This document shows, in pieces, positions 1-13,661 of a stretch of DNA of 16,228 nucleotides. Source of the DNA: a virus; the UHGV virus genome UHGV-1335354; one strand, written 5' to 3'. Each line of letters opens with the position of its first letter. Positions within the stretch are counted from its first letter, which is position 1. The notes under the pieces are model-generated. The model saw only the letters and a program-made list of their open reading frames with translations, had not been told where the DNA came from and searched no databases. The translations under genes were made by a program, and so were the position numbers.

Positions 1-55
1 AGAACGAGAGCTTCCCAAGCTCTATACGAGGGTTCGATTCCCTTCGCCCGCTCCA
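1..55 (+). tRNA. glyU: tRNA-Gly (anticodon CCC), 5' part cut by window edge; its 3' end is the attL side of the island
   Basis: Sequence matches the 3' two-thirds of enterobacterial tRNA-Gly(CCC) as I recall it: anticodon loop CTTCCCAAG, T-arm GGTTCGATTCC, acceptor 3' strand CGCCCGC, discriminator and CCA at 53-55. Confidence 0.9.
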
Positions 56-792: not shown

Positions 793-1113
793 TTACTTCT
801 TAATATCGCCAGTGCATTGATATTCGATAGTCACAAGTGTTTGCATACAACCAGATGAAGAAGGTTGTGAACATTGAGAAGTGAATCCACCAAAAGGCTC
901 GGCTCCTGAATATCCCCAAGCGGCACAACGCGCTTTGGCTGCATTCATGCCTTGTTGTGGATCTACAACAGGACTTTCAAACATACCGTAAGAATAACTC
1001 ATCCTAACTGTGCCGTCTGATTTGCTTCCACCAGTTGGAACGAGTTGTTTTTTTGTTGCACATCCAGAAATAATCAATGTTGAAGCAAGTAACAGCATTA
1101 AACTTTTGCGCAT
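793..1113 (-). CDS. putative lipoprotein (106 aa) with six cysteines in the mature part
   Basis: N-terminus MRKSLMLLLASTLIISGC has a signal peptide plus lipobox (I-S-G-C) typical of signal peptidase II substrates; no specific family assigned. Confidence 0.6.
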   Translation of the reverse strand: MRKSLMLLLASTLIISGCATKKQLVPTGGSKSDGTVRMSYSYGMFESPVVDPQQGMNAAKARCAAWGYSGAEPFGGFTSQCSQPSSSGCMQTLVTIEYQCTGDIKK

Positions 1114-1765: not shown

Positions 1766-2317
1766 TTACGCTTCCTGCTCTTTCTTGATACGTTGCACCG
1801 TCTGTGTGCTGACACTGAAATCTTTTGCTACGCTCCGAATTGATCCACCATTCGCGAGAGCGGCAACAATTCCCGCTCGATCAATTGCTTTTCCATTACC
1901 ACGTTTTGCTATACGCCCAGCTGCCTTAGCTGCGGCGATCCCTTCACGTTGACGCTCAAGCATCATTTCACGTTCCATTTGTGCCACTGCTGCAAGCACT
2001 GTGAGCATCATATTCCCTGCGGGAGAGTTCTTCCCTGTCTTAAAGTCTTCTTTATGGAAATGCACAGACACGCCGCGCTCTGTTAATTGCTCAACCGTTG
2101 CCAGAAGGTCGGCTGTATTACGGCAAAGGCGATCAATGCTGTGAACATGCAAAACATCACCTTCCCGCACATAGTTCATCATTGCCTCAAACTGTGGGCG
2201 CTGGGTATTCTTGCCTGACGCTTTATCTTCAAAGACTTTATCAAGAGTTACTCCAGCTAATTGACGGTCTGTGTTTTGTTGCACAGTCGATACCCTAATG
2301 TATCCAATATTAGCCAT
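1766..2317 (-). CDS. serine recombinase, small resolvase/invertase type (183 aa)
   Basis: N-terminus MANIGYIRVSTVQQNTDRQ with catalytic Ser at position 10, conserved R/D residues of the resolvase catalytic domain, C-terminal HTH (GGSIRSVAKDFSVSTQTVQRI). AGGA Shine-Dalgarno upstream. Confidence 0.85.
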   Translation of the reverse strand: MANIGYIRVSTVQQNTDRQLAGVTLDKVFEDKASGKNTQRPQFEAMMNYVREGDVLHVHSIDRLCRNTADLLATVEQLTERGVSVHFHKEDFKTGKNSPAGNMMLTVLAAVAQMEREMMLERQREGIAAAKAAGRIAKRGNGKAIDRAGIVAALANGGSIRSVAKDFSVSTQTVQRIKKEQEA

Positions 2318-2551
2318 TTTCTTTATTCCTTCTGTGTTGATTTGTGTGTAGTGATTATTGATCGTGTTGATTAGGTGTGTAAAGGACTTTTTTCACTACG
2401 AAATTCGAAGGTTTTTAGTGTGGTGATTTAGCCTGCTTTATCACTACACGTCTTGCATGAGAATCATGTAGTTACATTTTGGTAAAATTAGCAAGCTATT
2501 AAATAGTGTGTTTATTTTGAAAAAATAATTTTTTGTTGCATTAAAGGAAAC

Positions 2552-2585
2552 TTGTTCAATAAATGGTAGAACATTTATTGAGCAA
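2552..2585. promoter_or_regulatory. 34-bp palindrome (14-bp arms, 13/14 match, 6-bp spacer): candidate protein-binding or recombination site
   Basis: TTGTTCAATAAATG-gtagaa-CATTTATTGAGCAA read from the sequence, ~235 bp upstream of the serine recombinase start. Confidence 0.35.
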
Positions 2586-2940
2586 CAATTTTGCAGTGAT
2601 ACGCTATATGCCGCATTACATAAGGCTTTGCTGATGATAATGTAAAAGTGAAGAAAGTAAGAATTGCACTTTGAAGCTACTTTTCATTGCATTTTTTAGT
2701 ATGGAATTACACGGAATAAACTATGAATATTCTACGATTTACACGAGATATTCTTGCTGTTTAATTCCGGCTTTGGAGATCAGGCATTCGCAAGAATACG
2801 CTAACGCGTTGCCTGAAAAGCCATTGCACATAATAGAGGTGAGCGTATAGCGATACACTAATCATAACAACATCTTCTTACTTTTTAGTTAGTTAGTTGT
2901 TAGTAGGTTATTGTTATGCGCGCTATTAGCGCATGTATAA

Positions 2941-2989
2941 AGGTATCATTTTTATCTAAAGGGGCTTTAGACATTTTTGATACCTTTTT
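2941..2989 (+). terminator. bipartite hairpin (outer 8-bp and inner 6-bp stems) followed by a T-run; candidate rho-independent terminator or structured RNA
   Basis: AGGTATCA...CTAAAG-GGG-CTTTAG...TGATACCT followed by TTTTTC. Confidence 0.35.
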
Positions 2990-3025
2990 CTGTGCAAGAC
3001 ACTTACCAGTGTATAGTGCGGTTTC

Positions 3026-3077
3026 CCTACCTACCCAGGAAATGAGTTCCTACCTACCCAGGAAATGAGTTCCTACA
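3026..3077. repeat. 23-bp perfect tandem direct repeat, 2.3 copies (CCTACCTACCCAGGAAATGAGTT)
   Basis: Copies at 3026-3048 and 3049-3071 are identical, followed by partial copy CCTACA. Confidence 0.9.
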
Positions 3078-3084
3078 ATACTAT

Positions 3085-3106
3085 AATTAAACTACAATTA
3101 AACTAT
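3085..3106. repeat. 11-bp AT-rich tandem repeat x2 (AATTAAACTAC / AATTAAACTAT)
   Basis: Read directly from the sequence, immediately after the 23-bp repeats. Confidence 0.7.
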
Positions 3107-3239
3107 CTTTTATAAATTCTTTTATCTTTTAAAGAATAATTATAGGGATACCCGTTAGGGAGTCTTCGACTATCCCTTAATCTATTGGCATTCGCCAGAA
3201 CCTTGCACAAGTTAGACTGATGCTTGTCATAACAGATAG

Positions 3240-3287
3240 TTTTTGTTTTTTGTTTTTTGTTTTTTGTTTTTTGTTTTTTGTTTTTTG
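3240..3287. repeat. heptanucleotide microsatellite (TTTTTTG), about 7 units
   Basis: G at 3245, 3252, 3259, 3266, 3273, 3280 and 3287 with T6 between each; perfect periodicity of 7. Confidence 0.95.
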
Positions 3288-3943
3288 TTAGTAGTTAGCT
3301 GATCTATGTTCGCTTTCCGCTCACAACGAATATGTAATCTACTATGTGCAAATAGCCTACGGCTTGCGTATGGCTAATAGTCTTGCGCTGTGCGCAGAAC
3401 GATAATTAACTAACTACCATCTAACGATTGAAATTTACTTGTGCAATAACCTGAGCGTAAGCGAATGGTTGTTAGTGTCGCGTTACCCTTTGGGGATGCT
3501 AACGCATAACATGACAAAACAACCAACAACAAAAAAGAAAGAATGGTTTTTGTAGTTGAAGGTTAAATAAGATTCTACCGCTTAAATCAAGCCGTAGGCG
3601 AGCTTAACAGGGTAATGTAAGGGAAACACCTTAGCGGTAATAGATTAGCTCGTTACAGAGCTTCTGAGAACTTTGCAGGTATTTTATAAGATGTCTGAAA
3701 TCAGAGTTTATCTATCCACCATCTTTCCATCATCTGATAAATCAAAAATAAGACCCTTAAATAAGCCTCTGACGAGATAAACAACCTCTACATAAGGGAA
3801 TGTATTGTTTTTATCAAAACCCCGTCAGAGTGCGATTGAGAGCGTTTTAGACAACAGGGAAGAATTGTACCAGAGTAGGCAGCACAAAAAGCTAAGAAAA
3901 ATTATAAGAAATTGAAAATGATCAAATTTTTTATAAAAGAGGG

Positions 3944-3972
3944 TTGACAAAGCCGCCGTTATGTAGTATTGT
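3944..3972 (+). promoter_or_regulatory. candidate sigma70 promoter for the rightward small-gene operon
   Basis: TTGACA (3944-3949), 17-bp spacer, TATTGT (3967-3972); about 115 bp upstream of the first gene. Confidence 0.45.
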
Positions 3973-4088
3973 AAGTAGGGAGGGGAGAAACATCTCTCTC
4001 CATCTAAATAATCAAATCACAGAACACTGCACTTTGAGCCGTCAGGCTGCAAGGTGTGTTTTTCTTTTATCTAAATAAGGAGTTTTTT

Positions 4089-4271: not shown

Positions 4272-4294
4272 TAACAGGAGAAGGAGAAAACCAA

Positions 4295-4471
4295 ATGAAT
4301 ATTAATTTTGATTCTGCAACTTATAACGCGTTGTTAAATCGTGCAAAGGCAGAAGGGAAATCAATTCCAAAACTTGTTAATGAATTACTAATTACAGTCC
4401 TTACAAAGGAGGAACTAAATGAACCAAAACACCAAAACAATTGCCGAAGCAAAAGCGCAATGCCTCAATAA
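4295..4471 (+). CDS. unannotated small ORF (58 aa), possible ribbon-helix-helix (CopG/Arc-like) DNA-binding protein
   Basis: Hand-translated: MNINFDSATYNALLNRAKAEGKSIPKLVNELLITVLTKEELNEPKHQNNCRSKSAMPQ; GGAGAAGGAG upstream; N-terminal 40 aa resemble an RHH fold by composition; overlaps the next gene by 53 nt in another frame. Confidence 0.4.
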   Translation: MNINFDSATYNALLNRAKAEGKSIPKLVNELLITVLTKEELNEPKHQNNCRSKSAMPQ

Positions 4472-5084
4472 GAAAGATAGTAAACAAACATATGTAGTAG
4501 TTGAACAATGGCTGAAGATGTTTAAAAAGTGGTTCTCACCGTCAGGTAAGGAATACACCGCGACACTTCCAGCCGTTGAAATCTACAGTTACGTAGCTGG
4601 GTTCAATGAACAAGGGCAAGAATGTTACGCCAATCAAAAAACATTAGCTAATATTGGAATGGTTAGTGATCGTCAGGTGCGTAATATTATAAATATGTTT
4701 ATTGATATGGGTGTTCTTTCTGTAGAGGCACGGGACGGGCAAACATCACTCTATAAAGCATTACCCTTTACAGATGCACACATCACACCACCGGAAGACG
4801 TAAAAACCTCTGTAAACGTAGAACAGCCTGCACCTGAAACACAGGAACCGTTAGAAGCGACACACTCTATTGAGCAGGAAACACAGGCAGAAATCACGGA
4901 ACAATCTGATCTTTTTACATGGCTTATTTCCATAGACAGCCAAAAGCCTATGCAAGAAGAAACAGAAAATTTTATAAAACGTGCACTGACCTCGAAGAGG
5001 ATAATTCTTGAAGATGATGCTTTTAATGCACTGATGATAGCCCTGAGAAAAGAAAGTGAAATCTATGACTCAATACCATTTTAA
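4419..5084 (+). CDS. putative winged-helix/HTH DNA-binding protein (221 aa), replication-initiator-like or regulator, with acidic low-complexity C-terminal half
   Basis: AAGGAGG Shine-Dalgarno 7 nt upstream; central segment ECYANQKTLANIGMVSDRQVRNIINMFIDMGVLSV resembles HTH modules of phage/plasmid replication initiators; no Walker motif. Confidence 0.55.
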   Translation: MNQNTKTIAEAKAQCLNKKDSKQTYVVVEQWLKMFKKWFSPSGKEYTATLPAVEIYSYVAGFNEQGQECYANQKTLANIGMVSDRQVRNIINMFIDMGVLSVEARDGQTSLYKALPFTDAHITPPEDVKTSVNVEQPAPETQEPLEATHSIEQETQAEITEQSDLFTWLISIDSQKPMQEETENFIKRALTSKRIILEDDAFNALMIALRKESEIYDSIPF

Positions 5085-6329: not shown

Positions 6330-6643
6330 TGAGCGAAGTTCACACCGTAACTATTCAGCTATACGATTTAATCATCGACCTTCAAAAATCTGTTAACGAA
6401 GCCATAGAAGATCCGACAGAATTTAATATAGGAAAAGCCGTTCTCAATCTTCAATCTCTACATGATGCAATGTCAATGTTAGTTGTAGCTTGTGAGGAGG
6501 CCGAAGGCGGGAAAGTTGATGCAGAAGATCTTGCAAACTTCAATCTCATGTTGGCTGATTGTAGTTGTGTTGTTCAAAGTGCAATAGAAGACTTACAGCC
6601 GCTTATTGATAACCTGTTAAGGGGTAAGCATGAGCAACTTTAA
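6329..6643 (+). CDS. hypothetical strongly acidic protein (104 aa)
   Basis: GAGGAAG Shine-Dalgarno; Asp/Glu-rich composition; translationally coupled to neighbours. Confidence 0.5.
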   Translation: MSEVHTVTIQLYDLIIDLQKSVNEAIEDPTEFNIGKAVLNLQSLHDAMSMLVVACEEAEGGKVDAEDLANFNLMLADCSCVVQSAIEDLQPLIDNLLRGKHEQL

Positions 6644-6863
6644 AACTAAGCGTGTGGAGTGCCTGGCGCTCTCTGAGATGGGCGTGTCCTGCGCCTGTTT
6701 CACCATTGGAAAGATCTATACCGGACTACTGAACACAGAGAATAGCTTGATGGTTATCACTGATGACAACGGCAACAACCAGGCGGTTGTAGTGGGCGGT
6801 GCGTGTGCTTTCGGTAGCTGGAAACTGACTACAAAGAAAAATGAAAATAGCACGAATAGCTAA
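6630..6863 (+). CDS. hypothetical small cysteine-containing protein (77 aa)
   Basis: AAGGGG upstream; overlaps the upstream stop; local GC higher than neighbours. Confidence 0.45.
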   Translation: MSNFKTKRVECLALSEMGVSCACFTIGKIYTGLLNTENSLMVITDDNGNNQAVVVGGACAFGSWKLTTKKNENSTNS

Positions 6864-7865: not shown

Positions 7866-8252
7866 ATGGCTAACCCATACGGCGTTAAATTCGCCCCTGT
7901 AAACGCGAGCAATGACCTTGTGCGTTGCAAAATTATCGCCTATTCCGGCGATCCCCTGCTGCAAGACCGTTTAATCACACTGGCGGCACCACTGACAGAA
8001 GATGTTATTGTCGGTGATCTGCTGAAAGCTGATGGCACCAAAGCAACCGCCGCCGCTGATATCGCTTACGTCGCTGTAGAACCTTCGTTTGCAGGTCAGG
8101 AAAGCGTAGTGGTTGCACATCCTACTTTCGTTATTCTGGCGCGTGCTGGTATCGAATTTAACGGCATGGCAGAAGAAAGCGTGATCTCAAAACTGCAATC
8201 TATTGGTTTCGTGATCGCTGGTTATTCCGAAGCTGCAATCCCTACTACTTAA
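7866..8252 (+). CDS. possible phage head decoration-like protein (128 aa)
   Basis: Size, position directly upstream of the capsid-sized gene, and a loose pattern resemblance to lambda gpD/SHP-type decoration proteins; E. coli-like codon usage. Assignment unverified. Confidence 0.55.
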   Translation: MANPYGVKFAPVNASNDLVRCKIIAYSGDPLLQDRLITLAAPLTEDVIVGDLLKADGTKATAAADIAYVAVEPSFAGQESVVVAHPTFVILARAGIEFNGMAEESVISKLQSIGFVIAGYSEAAIPTT

Positions 8253-8270
8253 TATAAGGAAATATAAATA

Positions 8271-9305
8271 ATGAATATTCAAGAATTATTTGGTCGTCAG
8301 GCGAGCGTAGTAAGCCCATTCGAATATGAGCAAGGCTTAAACCTGCTGTTCTCTTCCCTGGAGATCTTTGATAAGCAATCTCACAGCACTAACAGTATTC
8401 TTCTGACTACTGCAATTGAAAGCTTTATGCAGATTGCAAATGAGCAAGAACCCTACGCACAAAGTCAGTGGGACTCAAGCAAGCGCGGCACCTTCTCAAA
8501 CGTAATGTTTGAAATGAAGCACCTTGCAACCATCAACAGCGTGACAAGTCGTGATCTTGAACAGTACAGCCGTAAAAATCTTTCTACTGCTGACTCTATG
8601 CTGCTGGCGATCAATGATTTTGCTAATCAGCATTACCGCTCACATGAGAACGCTGTAGAACGTGATCTGCTGCGTGCAATCCTCACGCTGAAAGTAGAAT
8701 CTCAATTTGCAGGTCAAGGTGATATTGATTTGCTGGAAGGTGACGCTAAAACCGTAGCGCCTGCAATTGACTTCACAAGCACTACCGTAAACCCTTACCG
8801 TGCACTGGCTAAGATTGTTCGTCAACAGTCTAACATTCTGGGCGAATCCCTTGCGGCTAAACGTTCCGGTGTTCTTGTGCTGGCTGCTGGCGGCGCTGCT
8901 GATGGTCTGCGTTACAACGATATGCTGAAAGATCAGGTTGTTTACTCCAGCAATGCACAGGCAAGCGCGGCAGTAACTAAGATCGTAGCTGATAACCCAG
9001 CGTATGATGCTTTCCAGCTTGCACAGGTGACTGTTATTGATGTTAGTGACTTCCCGTCAATCGTTGCAGAAATCGGTGAAAATGGTTTGGTTGTGATCCC
9101 GCTGTTCCCTGCTGATGTTCAAGCTTACGTGCTGCATACAGGCGTCGCGGTCCGTCATGCCGAACACGGTAAAGATGCGGAAACACATCACCAATATCTG
9201 ACACAGGATCAGTTTATGTTCCCGTCAGTGTGCACCGAAACGGCTTACCTGCCATTCATTCAGAAAGTAGTTGCTAAAGCGATTATCTTCTCTGAAGCAC
9301 AGTAA
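8271..9305 (+). CDS. possible major capsid protein of the lambda gpE-like family (344 aa)
   Basis: AAGGAA Shine-Dalgarno; length matches gpE (~341 aa); N-terminal segment QELF...FEYEQGLNLLF resembles the gpE N-terminus as I recall it; follows the decoration-like gene as in lambda D-E order. No alignment run. Confidence 0.6.
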   Translation: MNIQELFGRQASVVSPFEYEQGLNLLFSSLEIFDKQSHSTNSILLTTAIESFMQIANEQEPYAQSQWDSSKRGTFSNVMFEMKHLATINSVTSRDLEQYSRKNLSTADSMLLAINDFANQHYRSHENAVERDLLRAILTLKVESQFAGQGDIDLLEGDAKTVAPAIDFTSTTVNPYRALAKIVRQQSNILGESLAAKRSGVLVLAAGGAADGLRYNDMLKDQVVYSSNAQASAAVTKIVADNPAYDAFQLAQVTVIDVSDFPSIVAEIGENGLVVIPLFPADVQAYVLHTGVAVRHAEHGKDAETHHQYLTQDQFMFPSVCTETAYLPFIQKVVAKAIIFSEAQ

Positions 9306-9448: not shown

Positions 9449-9649
9449 ATGAGCGAACAAAACAAACAAGTAGAATTATATAAAGCAGTGCGCACACTGG
9501 CAGAAAACACCGATGAATCCATTGTAAACGTTAGCGCCTTATGCCGTTTTCTGGATGTGGATCATAATCGTGTGCGTCAATATGCACATTACCACAATGT
9601 AAGTGCAATCGCGGCTATTCAGTATGTGATGAATAACCCTGTAAAATAA
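9449..9649 (+). CDS. hypothetical small protein (66 aa); ORF track start 9401 is a TTG inside the upstream hairpin
   Basis: ATG at 9449 preceded by GAGAGAAAAATC; no family recognised. Confidence 0.45.
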   Translation: MSEQNKQVELYKAVRTLAENTDESIVNVSALCRFLDVDHNRVRQYAHYHNVSAIAAIQYVMNNPVK

Positions 9650-9667: not shown

Positions 9668-11515
9668 ATGAGTTTAGATATTTCTGTATCTACTTTAAAA
9701 AATACAGTAACCTTTGTTACCGATCATAAAAGCCTGAATAAAGCTAAAGCAGAAGTTGAAAAACTCCGTAAGCAAATGTCAGCCGTGAAAGACGTAGAAA
9801 TACGTGTTAAGACACACAAACAATCAACAGCTAAAACAAAAAAAGACGTAGACGATATTGCTAAAAAGCAAGCACAGGTAGATAAGGCAAATCTCAAAGC
9901 ACAAAAAGCGGCTCAACGTGTAGCGGCGCGAGAACAAAAAGCCCTGGCAGCACGCAAAGAGAAAGCAGAATTAAAACTGTTAGATGTTGGATCAAGTATT
10001 AGTGCAATGAATCGTCTTAATGTGTCTGAACAATACAAAGCTATTGCACAAGCTAAAGCTATTGCACACGAATATGAGAAGGGCGCTATTAGCCTGGCAC
10101 GTATGAATAGCCAAATGAAACGACTTCAACAGCAACAACGTAAGATTAACGGCAATCGTAACGCTCATGCTAAAGCTTATGCACCTGTTAAGGGTAGCGG
10201 GAGTATTGGCGGCGGTGCTGCTGCTGTTATGCTGGGCGGCTTAGGCGCTGGCGCTGCATTCTTGGCTATGAGTAAAGCAAACGAATTCGTTGCTAATAGT
10301 TTTGCCAATGCTGAGACACAAGGTGAATTATATAGCCGTGCGAAGCTGGGCGGTGTAGACGTTAACCAGATGAATAATATTGAGCAATGGGCGTATAAAA
10401 ACGGCGTTGATTCAATGATGGGCGAACAAGGGAAACGTAAATACCTCGACCAAATGAAAGATGTGCGTGAACGTGCAACCAAATCTTATGATGAGACTGA
10501 ATATGTAGTTGATAAAAAAACTGGTAAAGGGGAATGGAAGGGCGGCGATTCAGGTATTAATACTTTATTAAACGAAGGTTTCTTAACTAAGAAAGATTTA
10601 AAAGACTTCGCTAATAATCCGGCAGGTTTAATAAGTAAAGCAACACAAGGAATGGTGGCGAAAGGTTATTCTGATGCACAGGTGGGGTCACGGCTTGAAG
10701 ACCTGGGAGATGACCTTATGTTGACCTCCAAATATTGGACACGATCCGCTAAAGAAGTGGAACAATCAGCCCGTGAACAAAAAGAATCAGGACGCTGGAT
10801 AACGCAGGCACAACAGGAAAGCGTGATTAAATTCCGTGAACTGAATAATGCACTTACCGGACTTTCTGACTCACAAGGGATCGCCTTTGTTGATGGCTTT
10901 ATGAAATCTCTCGATCCTGCTGTGATTGAAGAATTTAAAAAGAGCATGGTTGCAATGCTGCCAATGTTTACCAAATTGGGCGAGGCTGTAGGGGGGCTGC
11001 TTAATGCGATCATGAAAACTATCAACTGGTTGATGAAAAATGACGAGAAGACGGCAGCTATTCAGAAGAATTTAGGTGATGCCCCTCCTTTAAGTAATGA
11101 AGGAATGAAGAAGAATTTAGATAATCTCACTCCTGATCAATATAAAGGCGCTGGCACTGCAACAACTGCACCGGATAATAGTAACTCTCTGTTTAATACT
11201 ATTAAGGGCTTTTTTGTTAATGGTGATGATTCTCCTTCTGGCGGTCAGGCTGCAATGCAATATGACGTTACAGGGCAAAACATTGCCAACCTGAAAAACA
11301 GTGCTGCACAGCAAGCTATGCAAGCTCCAGCCTACACATTTGCGCCTGTTCTCAATTTTGCACCTGAATTACAAGTTAATGCACAAGTGCCGCTAACTAT
11401 TCAGAGTGATACCGGACGATTGAGCGATTATATCGACTTCAAATCTAAAGCCTCTGCCGCTGAGTTTAGCAAGCTATTAACCCTGGGCGTTATGTCAGGC
11501 GGGTCAACCTATTAA
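9668..11515 (+). CDS. coiled-coil, glycine-rich protein (615 aa), tape-measure-like
   Basis: AAGGAG Shine-Dalgarno; N-terminal ~160 aa K/A/Q/E-rich coiled-coil-like; Gly/Ala hydrophobic segment GSGSIGGGAAAVMLGGLGAGAAFLAMS; no enzymatic motif or Walker A seen. Confidence 0.6.
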   Translation: MSLDISVSTLKNTVTFVTDHKSLNKAKAEVEKLRKQMSAVKDVEIRVKTHKQSTAKTKKDVDDIAKKQAQVDKANLKAQKAAQRVAAREQKALAARKEKAELKLLDVGSSISAMNRLNVSEQYKAIAQAKAIAHEYEKGAISLARMNSQMKRLQQQQRKINGNRNAHAKAYAPVKGSGSIGGGAAAVMLGGLGAGAAFLAMSKANEFVANSFANAETQGELYSRAKLGGVDVNQMNNIEQWAYKNGVDSMMGEQGKRKYLDQMKDVRERATKSYDETEYVVDKKTGKGEWKGGDSGINTLLNEGFLTKKDLKDFANNPAGLISKATQGMVAKGYSDAQVGSRLEDLGDDLMLTSKYWTRSAKEVEQSAREQKESGRWITQAQQESVIKFRELNNALTGLSDSQGIAFVDGFMKSLDPAVIEEFKKSMVAMLPMFTKLGEAVGGLLNAIMKTINWLMKNDEKTAAIQKNLGDAPPLSNEGMKKNLDNLTPDQYKGAGTATTAPDNSNSLFNTIKGFFVNGDDSPSGGQAAMQYDVTGQNIANLKNSAAQQAMQAPAYTFAPVLNFAPELQVNAQVPLTIQSDTGRLSDYIDFKSKASAAEFSKLLTLGVMSGGSTY

Positions 11516-12333: not shown

Positions 12334-13554
12334 TTAAGCCTTAAAATCAATATTTAATTCATATCTTACTAATTCTACATATTCAGCTAATTCTTGAATG
12401 CTTGCCCCTTGTGAGTAGGTGCGAAAGGCTTCTGTTTTAGCTATCTGCTCTGTATGTCCGGTAATGGCTCCGATCCGCTGTTCAGGCACTCCGGCACGAT
12501 CAAGACAAGTGATAAACATCCCGCGCAAGCTGTGAAAGCATTGTCTATTTGTAGCGATTGGCAAGACGCTACGACGTAAACGTGAGAATGCTTGAGAATA
12601 GAAAGGGCCTTTCTTACCGTCGATTCTTTTTACTTTGTTCGAGTGAGGGAACAAATATTCACCATAATTATGATTTAAATATTCATCGACAATAATCGAT
12701 AGTCTCGAATGTATCGGAACGTGCCTGATCCCTGCTTTAGTCTTACTTTTGCTGATATAAAAACAGCGTATTCCTTCCACAGTTACAACTTCTGACTTTT
12801 TCAGGCTTGCCAGTTCGTCTAATCTGCATCCTGAAAACAAGCCCATTAAAATAATATTTCTGATCTCCGGCTCCGCTGCATCAAGTAGCTTTTGCATTTG
12901 TTCAGGTGTAAACGGTTGATAACTCTCGATTGTGCGACGTGCTTCGAGGTTATGACCGTGAAAAGGGTTACTGTCTGGTATTCCGTCATAACGGCGTTTA
13001 GCAAATTCATAGAGCGATCCTAAGCATGTAAGCCAGTTTTGACGAGATTGATCGGCTGCTCCTCGTTGCTTCTGGTCATCTAAGAATACTGTTACAAGCC
13101 GTCTGCCTATTTTCTCAATATGAATATCATCTTTCTGAATGCTTTGTAAAAATAGCTCAACGGCCCTTGCTGATTTCTGTAGTGTTGAGTATGAACGACG
13201 CTCTCTGTAGCATTCGGCGTATTCGTCACGTATTAGGCACAGGGAAGGCGATGCATAACCGCGTTTTACGGCTCTTTGCGTGTTTTTATTGGCCCTTGCC
13301 TCTGAATGTAAGGATTCAATAGCTTGTTGTAACCTCCTTTCGGGGTTATCAGGATTATGTTTCCGCTTTAGTTCCTCCCATTCTAATAATAGATGGTTTC
13401 TGAATCTTCTCGCCTCATTCAGATCTCGTGTAGATGTGCTTTTTCTCCACAACTTGTAAGGGTAAAGATGACGTAAGTATTTAGGAACAAAAATCTGAAA
13501 CATCCAGATCCCATCTTTTCTCTTAAATAAGTATGCTTGGCTCTTGATCGACAC
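12334..13554 (-). CDS. int: tyrosine-type site-specific integrase (406 aa), GTG start
   Basis: C-terminal catalytic-domain signature: Arg in GCRLDE, HSLRG box, ITGH, terminal Tyr region; AGAGGA Shine-Dalgarno 8 nt before GTG; lies 86 bp inside the right direct repeat. Confidence 0.9.
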   Translation of the reverse strand: MSIKSQAYLFKRKDGIWMFQIFVPKYLRHLYPYKLWRKSTSTRDLNEARRFRNHLLLEWEELKRKHNPDNPERRLQQAIESLHSEARANKNTQRAVKRGYASPSLCLIRDEYAECYRERRSYSTLQKSARAVELFLQSIQKDDIHIEKIGRRLVTVFLDDQKQRGAADQSRQNWLTCLGSLYEFAKRRYDGIPDSNPFHGHNLEARRTIESYQPFTPEQMQKLLDAAEPEIRNIILMGLFSGCRLDELASLKKSEVVTVEGIRCFYISKSKTKAGIRHVPIHSRLSIIVDEYLNHNYGEYLFPHSNKVKRIDGKKGPFYSQAFSRLRRSVLPIATNRQCFHSLRGMFITCLDRAGVPEQRIGAITGHTEQIAKTEAFRTYSQGASIQELAEYVELVRYELNIDFKA

Positions 13555-13631: not shown

Positions 13632-13661
13632 GGGTTTCCTCGATTCCCTTCGCCCGCTCCA
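13632..13661 (+). repeat. attR: direct repeat of the tRNA-Gly 3' end
   Basis: 13640-13661 is identical (22/22) to tRNA positions 34-55 (TCGATTCCCTTCGCCCGCTCCA); upstream GGGTT also matches with a 3-4 bp insertion. Confidence 0.85.

Follow-up and report, generated by a model that had tools for sequence, protein, structure and literature searches.

The 16,228-nucleotide stretch analyzed here (the window; virus genome entry UHGV-1335354) is a piece of Escherichia coli chromosome, 99.4% identical to strain EC100, and its open reading frame (ORF) at positions 9668–11515 of the plus strand encodes a genuine tail tape measure protein (TMP) of 615 amino acids, in a short, satellite-type form; this gene identity is secure. 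The gene belongs to a cassette of five, encoding, in this order, a 128-aa protein, a capsid protein, a 66-aa protein, the TMP, and a tube initiator. The cassette lies on an island that spans 13,606 bp from repeat to repeat and, by its anatomy and by comparison, is well supported as a phage satellite and not a phage. We consider it probable that the protein acts as the working TMP of this 13.6-kb satellite, which would acquire chimeric tails with the help of a phage of the phi92/phAPEC8 group.

The tape measure protein

The ORF is uninterrupted from its ATG to the stop codon at 11515, with a Shine–Dalgarno sequence (AAGGAG) 7 nt 5′ of the ATG. The N-terminal ~170 residues of the protein are rich in Lys, Glu, Ala, and Gln, and residues ~20–170 are modeled as long helices (pLDDT 80–94; AlphaFold2, 36-sequence alignment). 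The Gly/Ala-rich segment GSIGGGAAAVMLGGLGAGAAFLAM (residues 178–204) is the sole strongly hydrophobic segment of the protein, hydrophobicity peaking at 1.73 at residues 183–201 (Kyte–Doolittle scale, 19-residue mean). The coiled-coil N-terminus and the Gly/Ala hydrophobic segment, noted for this ORF in the preliminary description of the DNA, are thus borne out by the reading frame, the helix model, and the hydropathy profile. The ratio of nonsynonymous to synonymous substitution rates (dN/dS) is 0.08–0.22 in comparisons with three further lineages of this cassette, and near-full-length homologues number in the hundreds; hence, the gene is under purifying selection and is no chance ORF.

Profile scans yield no Pfam and no NCBIfam match for the protein; in PHROGs, residues 155–613 match phrog_16051, annotated as “tail length tape measure protein” (E = 1.6e-27). 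The tblastn search against 50,697 phage records matches 134 of them, all at less than 60% identity; these are mostly Escherichia and Klebsiella phages by name, and all that were inspected are Stephanstirmvirinae with genomes of 142–154 kb. The best phage matches show 27–31% identity for the TMP and 48–54% for the initiator. The sequence search of the PDB finds Phi92_gp134 (21vq_V, E = 3e-20), and BLASTP aligns the protein with the TMP of phage PHB05 (E = 3e-25, 27% identity over 452 columns), the first 32 residues being 44% identical, and residues 583–614 aligning with residues 626–657 of the PHB05 protein. In phi92, gp134 has been located by cryo-EM as a trimeric TMP, whose C-terminal residues 631–656 lie inside the baseplate beside the hexameric initiator gp135 (PMC13450770).

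Similarity to three phage TMPs is unevenly distributed along the protein. The N-terminal 35 residues are 38–44% identical, the central domain (206–400) 28–32%, and the last 55 residues 27–53%; the coiled coil (36–175) is only 8–19% identical, and the phage proteins have 34–71 extra residues there. The parts expected to contact helper proteins thus appear to be the conserved ones. Residues ~210–395 are modeled as a compact helical domain with a beta-hairpin (pLDDT ~90), and the residues near-invariant in the family within the central domain are D261, K264, D265, G293, P318, and E344. The fold search with the TMP model yields nothing at E ≤ 0.001 in the PDB and three matches at this threshold in BFVD, all unnamed; the few named, weaker BFVD matches include TMPs, e.g., lambda gpH. 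Hence, residues ~210–395 are without a known fold match.

The family is narrow, as only 71 relatives are found among 1.84 billion cluster representatives. Consistent occurrence of homologues in non-phage contexts, proposed in the preliminary description as evidence against a phage tail protein, is not seen: wherever the genomic context was inspected, it is a phage tail module or a satellite-like cassette. As to the features of a phi92-type TMP, we find the homology, the helices with a hydrophobic segment, the C-terminal segment, and the gene position; a cognate tail assembly chaperone gene is not found upstream.

The tube initiator and the missing tail genes

The TMP gene had been described as having no adjacent tail genes. 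This holds for sheath, tube, terminator, hub, spike, portal, and terminase, none of which is found in the window by Pfam, PHROGs, and NCBIfam scans, but not for the very next gene, which begins 47 nt 3′ of the TMP gene and encodes a tube initiator. Its product matches Dit_like (PF21821) with E = 4.9e-27 and 95 bits (the curated cut-off being 24.2), and is 52% identical (E = 1e-69) to PHB05 gp127, which is encoded directly after the PHB05 TMP. Its PDB matches, all solved tube initiators, are Phi92_gp135 (21vq_N, E = 8e-59), a protein named “tube initiator” (9cuy_K, E = 1.2e-9), and, more weakly, Pam3 gp17 (7yfz, E = 0.0033).

Related islands, circular forms, and TMP length

Of 5,426 complete E. 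coli genomes, 601 (~11%) contain cassette-related DNA, counted as partial matches at the DNA level; the most widely conserved part of it is the center of the TMP gene. In the lineages of APEC O1 and AR_0374, islands of the same architecture are situated at tRNA-Thr beside proA. The cassette order and the integrase are kept in Escherichia, Buttiauxella, Phytobacter, Citrobacter, Kluyvera, and Enterobacter; the scan across bacteria covered one genome per species. In 13 related loci, the tblastn search with proteins of phage muut reveals no sheath, tube, terminator, hub, spike, portal, or terminase gene beside the cassette. The five cassette genes are all free of disruption, and their dN/dS is 0.07–0.45 where dS could be estimated. 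The TMP is the best conserved cassette protein among the lineages (61–87%), compared with 18–57% for the capsid protein.

Satellite TMPs have 609–624 residues, and those of six sequenced phages have 635–660; a single satellite value of 645 may reflect a wrong start call. The difference is consistent, satellite TMPs being ~35–45 residues shorter than phage ones. Phage TMPs carry a Pro/Gly-rich linker and an Arg/Glu-rich coiled-coil insert, and island TMPs are without both. In the neighbor-joining tree, phage TMPs form one clade, with the island proteins outside it.

The TMP gene is also found on contigs of 13.2–13.8 kb in many short-read assemblies. Three complete circular assemblies from different runs have 13,752, 13,665, and 13,816 bp, with a 30-bp terminal overlap; they contain neither the integrase nor the tRNA attachment core. 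Their cassette is 95% identical to that of the island, their replication module is different (a 492–495-aa protein with weak helicase and helix-turn-helix (HTH) matches), and their cargo, just 3′ of the initiator gene, comprises a T4 Imm-type superinfection immunity gene (Imm_superinfect) and a 150-aa ORF. The constant size of ~13.7 kb with changing modules suggests a packaging limit, and the circular assemblies could be episomal, lytic-satellite, or packaged forms. Matches in IMG/VR come mostly from regions of isolate genomes and are uninformative on encapsidation.

Exchange with Justusliebigvirus phages

Two stretches of the window have close megablast matches in phages, and all the named matching phages belong to Justusliebigvirus. 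Positions 4514–4774 (261 bp) are 91% identical to muut, inny, Mt1B1_P17, and BI-EHEC, and positions 4281–4447 (167 bp) are 96% (95.8%) identical to PaulScherrer and VEcB. The two stretches are independent pieces of shared DNA. Identity of 91–96% indicates that islands and Justusliebigvirus phages exchanged DNA recently. At the protein level, the 58-aa product of the small-ORF block shares 48 of 53 residues with bas60_0101, an early-region ORF of the BASEL phage PaulScherrer (BLASTP), and residues 30–143 of the HTH_36 protein are 75% identical to residues 123–230 of muut gp094, that is, to its second HTH_36 domain (BLASTP, E = 9e-60).

The 332-aa muut gp094 has two HTH_36 domains followed by a MUG113 domain (PF13455), which we read as nuclease-like, of the T5orf172 type. 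This architecture resembles that of Odn of phage ICP1, a chimeric nuclease which bears the DNA-binding domain of the origin-binding protein of a PLE (an element resembling phage-inducible chromosomal islands) and cuts the PLE origin (PMC8263062). By analogy, gp094 may mark an arms race between islands and phages, and replication-module swaps among islands would fit escape from a gp094-like nuclease.

Capsid gene and other features of the island

The island is satellite-like, as it has attachment (att) repeats at tRNA-Gly and a tyrosine integrase, and most virion genes are absent. Its genes are ordered as cargo, an ORF-poor stretch of 1.7 kb, a small-ORF block with the HTH_36 protein, and the cassette (Table 1). 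The att core is also present in two related loci. Beyond attR, there is ordinary chromosome with ygeQ and the ETT2 type III secretion genes. The preliminary description did not recognize the satellite context (att sites, integrase, capsid gene).

Table 1. Features of the window other than the TMP gene.
Feature	Position	Strand	Evidence
tRNA-Gly(CCC), 3′ part	1–55	+	Rfam tRNA match at 1–52; ARAGORN tRNA-Gly (ccc) in the full locus
attL, last 22 nt of tRNA-Gly	34–55	+	Direct repeat
YecR-like lipoprotein, variable cargo	793–1113	-	PF13992, E = 1.8e-23
Serine recombinase/invertase, 183 aa, variable cargo	1766–2317	-	PF00239, E = 1.1e-38; phrog_125
ORF-poor AT-rich region	2318–4055		No ORF >59 aa; GC 0.35–0.37
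58-aa protein	4295–4471	+	91% identical to PaulScherrer bas60_0101
HTH_36 protein, 221 aa, replication-initiator-like	4419–5084	+	PF13730; PHROGs for replication initiators and O-like proteins
Putative capsid cement/decoration protein, 128 aa (tentative)	7866–8252	+	Size and position
Major capsid protein, 344 aa, lambda gpE/HK97-fold type	8271–9305	+	Relatives, profiles
Conserved small protein, 66 aa, HTH-like	9449–9649	+	Directly 5′ of the TMP gene
Tail-tube initiator, Dit-like, 225 aa	11563–12240	+	Counterpart of phi92 gp135; Pfam, PHB05, and PDB matches
Tyrosine integrase	12334–13554	-	PF00589, DUF6538, phrog_1 (E = 1.4e-38); adjoins attR, just inside
attR, exact 22-nt copy of TCGATTCCCTTCGCCCGCTCCA	13640–13661	+	Repeat search, spacing 13606

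The capsid protein is assigned by sequence and profiles. Its relatives at 42–43% identity carry PF03864 (Phage_cap_E), its PDB profile matches are capsid proteins, and hhalign gives a probability of 83% (E = 9e-6) with the capsid protein of PHB05; for the sister lineage APEC O1, the alignment of its capsid protein with the phage one extends over the full length (E = 2e-9). The AlphaFold2 model is unusable (pLDDT 45, 8-sequence alignment). As the 50,697 phage records contain no tblastn match, this capsid protein is peculiar to the islands.

In size and position, the 128-aa protein corresponds to gp123, the phage cement protein encoded directly 5′ of the phage capsid gene. The sequence similarity between the two is a trace one (hhalign probability 1%), and the best PDB match of the 128-aa protein is a “head stabilization/decoration protein” (E = 0.11); we tentatively regard it as a capsid cement protein.

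The gene of the 66-aa protein is positioned alike in all related loci, and in APEC O1 it overlaps the start of the TMP gene; the protein has the HTH-like core LCRLLDVDxNxVRQ. It could be a packaging-specificity or regulatory factor. A role as the tail assembly chaperone was considered and rejected, hhalign probability being below 1% with the phage chaperone and with small ORFs 5′ of phage TMP genes; the PDB profile search with the 66-aa protein returns noise only.

The ORF-poor region contains tandem repeats at 3026–3076, 3080–3105, 3240–3289, and 3710–3735, with units that include a 23-mer (x2.2), TTTTTGT (x7), and two 11-mers (x2.4), and it is partly conserved in the circular variants. It may be a replication origin (with the repeats as iterons), a packaging region, or a regulatory region. 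The Rfam scan of the window finds only the tRNA. The 15-mer TTATATGCTCTTCTC, situated 5′ of two operons, was considered as a promoter or operator shared with the helper and dropped, as neither other satellites nor phage muut conserve it. For the 77-aa protein encoded at 6630–6863, PHROGs yields phrog_27862 (E = 1.5e-15, unknown function) and a weak match to a “virion structural protein” family; this may be another small protein related to the helper.

The cargo varies among near-identical islands: the YecR-like lipoprotein and the invertase are seen here, and Imm_superinfect with ORFs of unknown function elsewhere. Several carriers (strains UTME-14, UTME-10, and UTME-9) have insertion sequence elements inside the island.

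Proposed mechanism

The preliminary description offered, as one possibility, a TMP working with the tail components of a helper phage and perhaps altering tail length. The homology establishes the TMP and, together with the genomic contexts of the homologues and the shorter satellite TMPs, makes this the favored alternative; the dependence on a helper and the altered tail length, as well as helper identity, induction, packaging, incorporation of the TMP, and the gain to the satellite, are what we infer.

In the proposed sequence of events, a large lytic myovirus of the phi92/phAPEC8 group (Stephanstirmvirinae) would infect a cell carrying the island. The satellite would then replicate and form small capsids from its own capsid protein on the portal and packaging machinery of the helper. 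Its TMP and initiator would replace gp134 and gp135 of the helper at the center of the baseplate, and the helper tube and sheath would polymerize around the satellite TMP, producing chimeric tails. Every other part of the virion would probably be supplied by the helper, whose chaperone would have to serve the satellite TMP. The conserved TMP termini and the high identity of the initiator fit such docking, in which the initiator would have to stack between the helper hub and tube. The constant size of ~13.7 kb, the circular contigs, and the DNA shared with candidate helper phages are indirect signs of helper-dependent induction, packaging, and transfer.

With the TMP shorter by 35–45 residues at 1.5 Å per residue, the chimeric tails are predicted to be 5–7 nm (one or two tube rings) shorter than those of the helper. 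By the same rule, the phi92 TMP (659 residues) corresponds to 99 nm. At an assumed rise of ~4 nm per ring, as is general for contractile tails, 24 rings in phi92 would give a similar length. This number of tube rings has been reported for the phi92 tail (PMC13450770).

What the satellite would gain is a matter of several possibilities, i.e., evasion of an inhibitor directed at the helper TMP (PLE11 and Rta being a parallel), damage to the tails of the helper, or a requirement of DNA entry.

A number of observations weigh against this interpretation. A difference of 5–7 nm in tail length carries no obvious benefit. No TMP or initiator in the phage collection is more than ~54% identical to that of the island, and the phages named here are thus candidate helpers. 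Neither a small terminase nor a recognizable packaging signal is found in the island, and no satellite-encoded tail assembly chaperone is found, unlike in PLE. The cement protein assignment is weak, and the capsid protein model is poor. Position outside the phage clade of the tree makes the satellite TMPs an old lineage and not a recent capture. Finally, the circular contigs could be plasmid-like states and not necessarily packaged genomes.

Alternative explanations

It is unlikely, in our estimate, that the TMP and the initiator act in interference only, as dominant-negative decoys that would enter helper baseplates, leave the helper defective or tailless, and thereby protect the bacterial population, and would not be needed for transfer of the island. 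The conserved termini of the TMP would allow docking into helper assemblies, and blocking of tail assembly is known in mobile elements, from Tai systems (PMC11364771) and from Rta of PLE11 (PMC12987554). However, the known inhibitors of tail assembly are small, unrelated proteins and not full-length TMP paralogues; the capsid gene and the kept size of ~13.7 kb point to particle formation; and the TMP of PLE is a structural part of the satellite virion (PMC12987554). The Tai inhibitors were set aside, as the available part of that description (PMC11364771) mentions neither a TMP homologue nor a tube initiator. A decoy role and a structural role can coexist. A similarly small chance is given to a satellite of a different, unsequenced helper outside Stephanstirmvirinae, e.g., a myovirus, temperate or otherwise, whose tail module is related. 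The low identities of the best phage TMPs and initiators and the lack of a phage match for the capsid protein would be expected for such a partner; at the same time, all inspected phage TMP matches are Stephanstirmvirinae, the 91–96% DNA identity with Justusliebigvirus early genes reflects recent exchange, and PLE proteins are equally distant (20–41%) from those of ICP1 (PMC12987554).

Far less credible is a decaying prophage remnant with a functionless TMP gene. The island does contain only part of a virion module, and its tRNA site is a hotspot of integration; this explanation is, however, largely refuted by the intact state and low dN/dS of the five cassette genes, by the minimal gene set and order kept in six genera and in ~600 complete E. 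coli genomes, by the existence of circular copies, and by the related phages being lytic, with genomes of 145–154 kb, and not known as prophages. Least of all is to be said for a coiled-coil membrane or secreted protein unrelated to tails: the scaffold, injection protein, secreted effector, or cell-envelope protein considered in the preliminary description finds no support. The single hydrophobic segment, the long helices, and the absence of a Pfam match would agree with it, but it is refuted by the context. The homology to a TMP located by cryo-EM is significant, the contexts examined among the 71 relatives are all phage TMP loci or the cassette, and the nearby ETT2 genes lie outside the att sites.

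Returning to the helper-dependent satellite with its own TMP, a wider proposal may be put forward tentatively, as somewhat closer to doubtful than to probable: these islands may represent widespread, undescribed satellites in Enterobacteriaceae that exploit lytic Stephanstirmvirinae, phages frequently isolated for therapy. As an E. coli equivalent of PLE and ICP1, they would form a small capsid of their own, swap the tail core (TMP and tube initiator), exist in integrated form or as circular episomes without integrase, and be engaged in an Odn-like arms race.

Significance

Satellite-encoded TMPs have been known since 2025–26, from PLEs (PMC12987554) and EPIPs (PMC12822802), and are predicted in some cf-PICIs (phage-inducible chromosomal islands that form capsids); the first experimental demonstration that satellites rebuild tails dates from 2026 and concerns a single Vibrio system. 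Our search of open-access papers and preprints turned up neither this enterobacterial family nor a satellite of any Stephanstirmvirinae phage. If the proposed interpretation is true, an independent, sequence-unrelated family in E. coli would make tail remodeling a recurrent strategy of satellites. It would also offer the most tractable host, sequenced candidate helpers (phi92, the BASEL phage PaulScherrer, and muut), and the phi92 baseplate structure at near-atomic resolution, on which the satellite proteins can be mapped. Among therapeutic phages, the candidate helpers are popular ones, and the islands could affect phage efficacy; they could also move cargo, e.g., superinfection-immunity genes, between strains. 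Cassette-related DNA occurs in about one of every nine complete E. coli genomes.

Comparison with known systems

The closest experimentally tested parallel is the chimeric-tail module (TAC, TMP, BhuB) of the Vibrio cholerae PLEs, satellites of the lytic myovirus ICP1 (Mathur, Boyd et al., Nature 2026, PMC12987554). The TMP and the chaperone encoded by PLEs each share 20% identity with their ICP1 counterparts, and the baseplate hub protein, which some variants encode as well, shares 41%; in PLE11 virions, the TMP and the hub protein are those of PLE, with the ICP1 ones excluded, and PLE11 tails are ~10 nm shorter, in line with a TMP shorter by 95 residues (PMC12987554). Similarly, the island is a small integrated element (13.6 kb, compared with ~18 kb in PLE) that has a shorter TMP, distant from that of a lytic myovirus (27% identity in the island, 20% in PLE), next to a better conserved baseplate-core protein (52 and 41%, respectively), and has no sheath, tube, or fiber genes. 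ICP1 resembles phi92-type phages in gene order, with decoration followed by capsid, and with sheath, tube, chaperone, TMP, and small hub or initiator. The possible Odn counterpart is a further parallel.

The differences are as follows. PLEs use a large serine recombinase, while the integrase of the island is a tyrosine recombinase at a tRNA, and its serine recombinase is a small invertase-type cargo. The island TMP has no detectable similarity to either half of the ICP1 TMP, and ICP1 gp78 gives only a trace (25% over 60 residues). The capsid protein is the island's own, as opposed to the ICP1 capsid proteins found in PLE particles (PMC12987554); no chaperone gene is found in the island. Judging by the tyrosine integrase and the absence of ICP1 TMP similarity, with ICP1 sequences used for the comparison, the island is not a PLE.

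With phi92 (Justusliebigvirus), the relationship is one of true homology: gp134 and gp135 are encoded in the same order (PMC13450770, PDB 21vq), and gp134 and the island TMP have in common the N-terminal motif, the Gly/Ala segment, the central domain, and the baseplate-docking C-terminal segment, although gp134 has 659 residues and is encoded in a 148-kb phage, compared with 615 residues on a chromosomal island. The phage gene order is cement, capsid, neck, sheath, tube, chaperone, small ORF, TMP, initiator, plug, hub, spike, of which the island keeps a collinear subset, four of the phage virion genes.

Typically, cf-PICIs have a complete head and packaging module (portal, protease, connectors, small terminase). 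Like the island, they are integrated satellites of Enterobacteriaceae with their own HK97-fold capsid protein and with tails from helpers; in the island, however, profile scans find only the capsid protein and a possible cement protein. The known helpers of cf-PICIs are temperate phages of ~40 kb (PMC12772148). As portal, protease, connectors, and small terminase are not found, the island is not a cf-PICI as usually defined. EPIPs, prophage satellites of Mycolicibacterium described in a preprint (PMC12822802), also combine a capsid protein with a TMP, and their tail length differs from that of the helper. By description, they differ from the island in the actinobacterial host, the siphovirus-type helper prophage, the serine integrase, the additional small terminase and head–tail connectors, and in tails that are longer (PMC12822802). 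In broad terms, the element would operate as PLEs do, and a capsid protein of its own is a trait that it shares with cf-PICIs.

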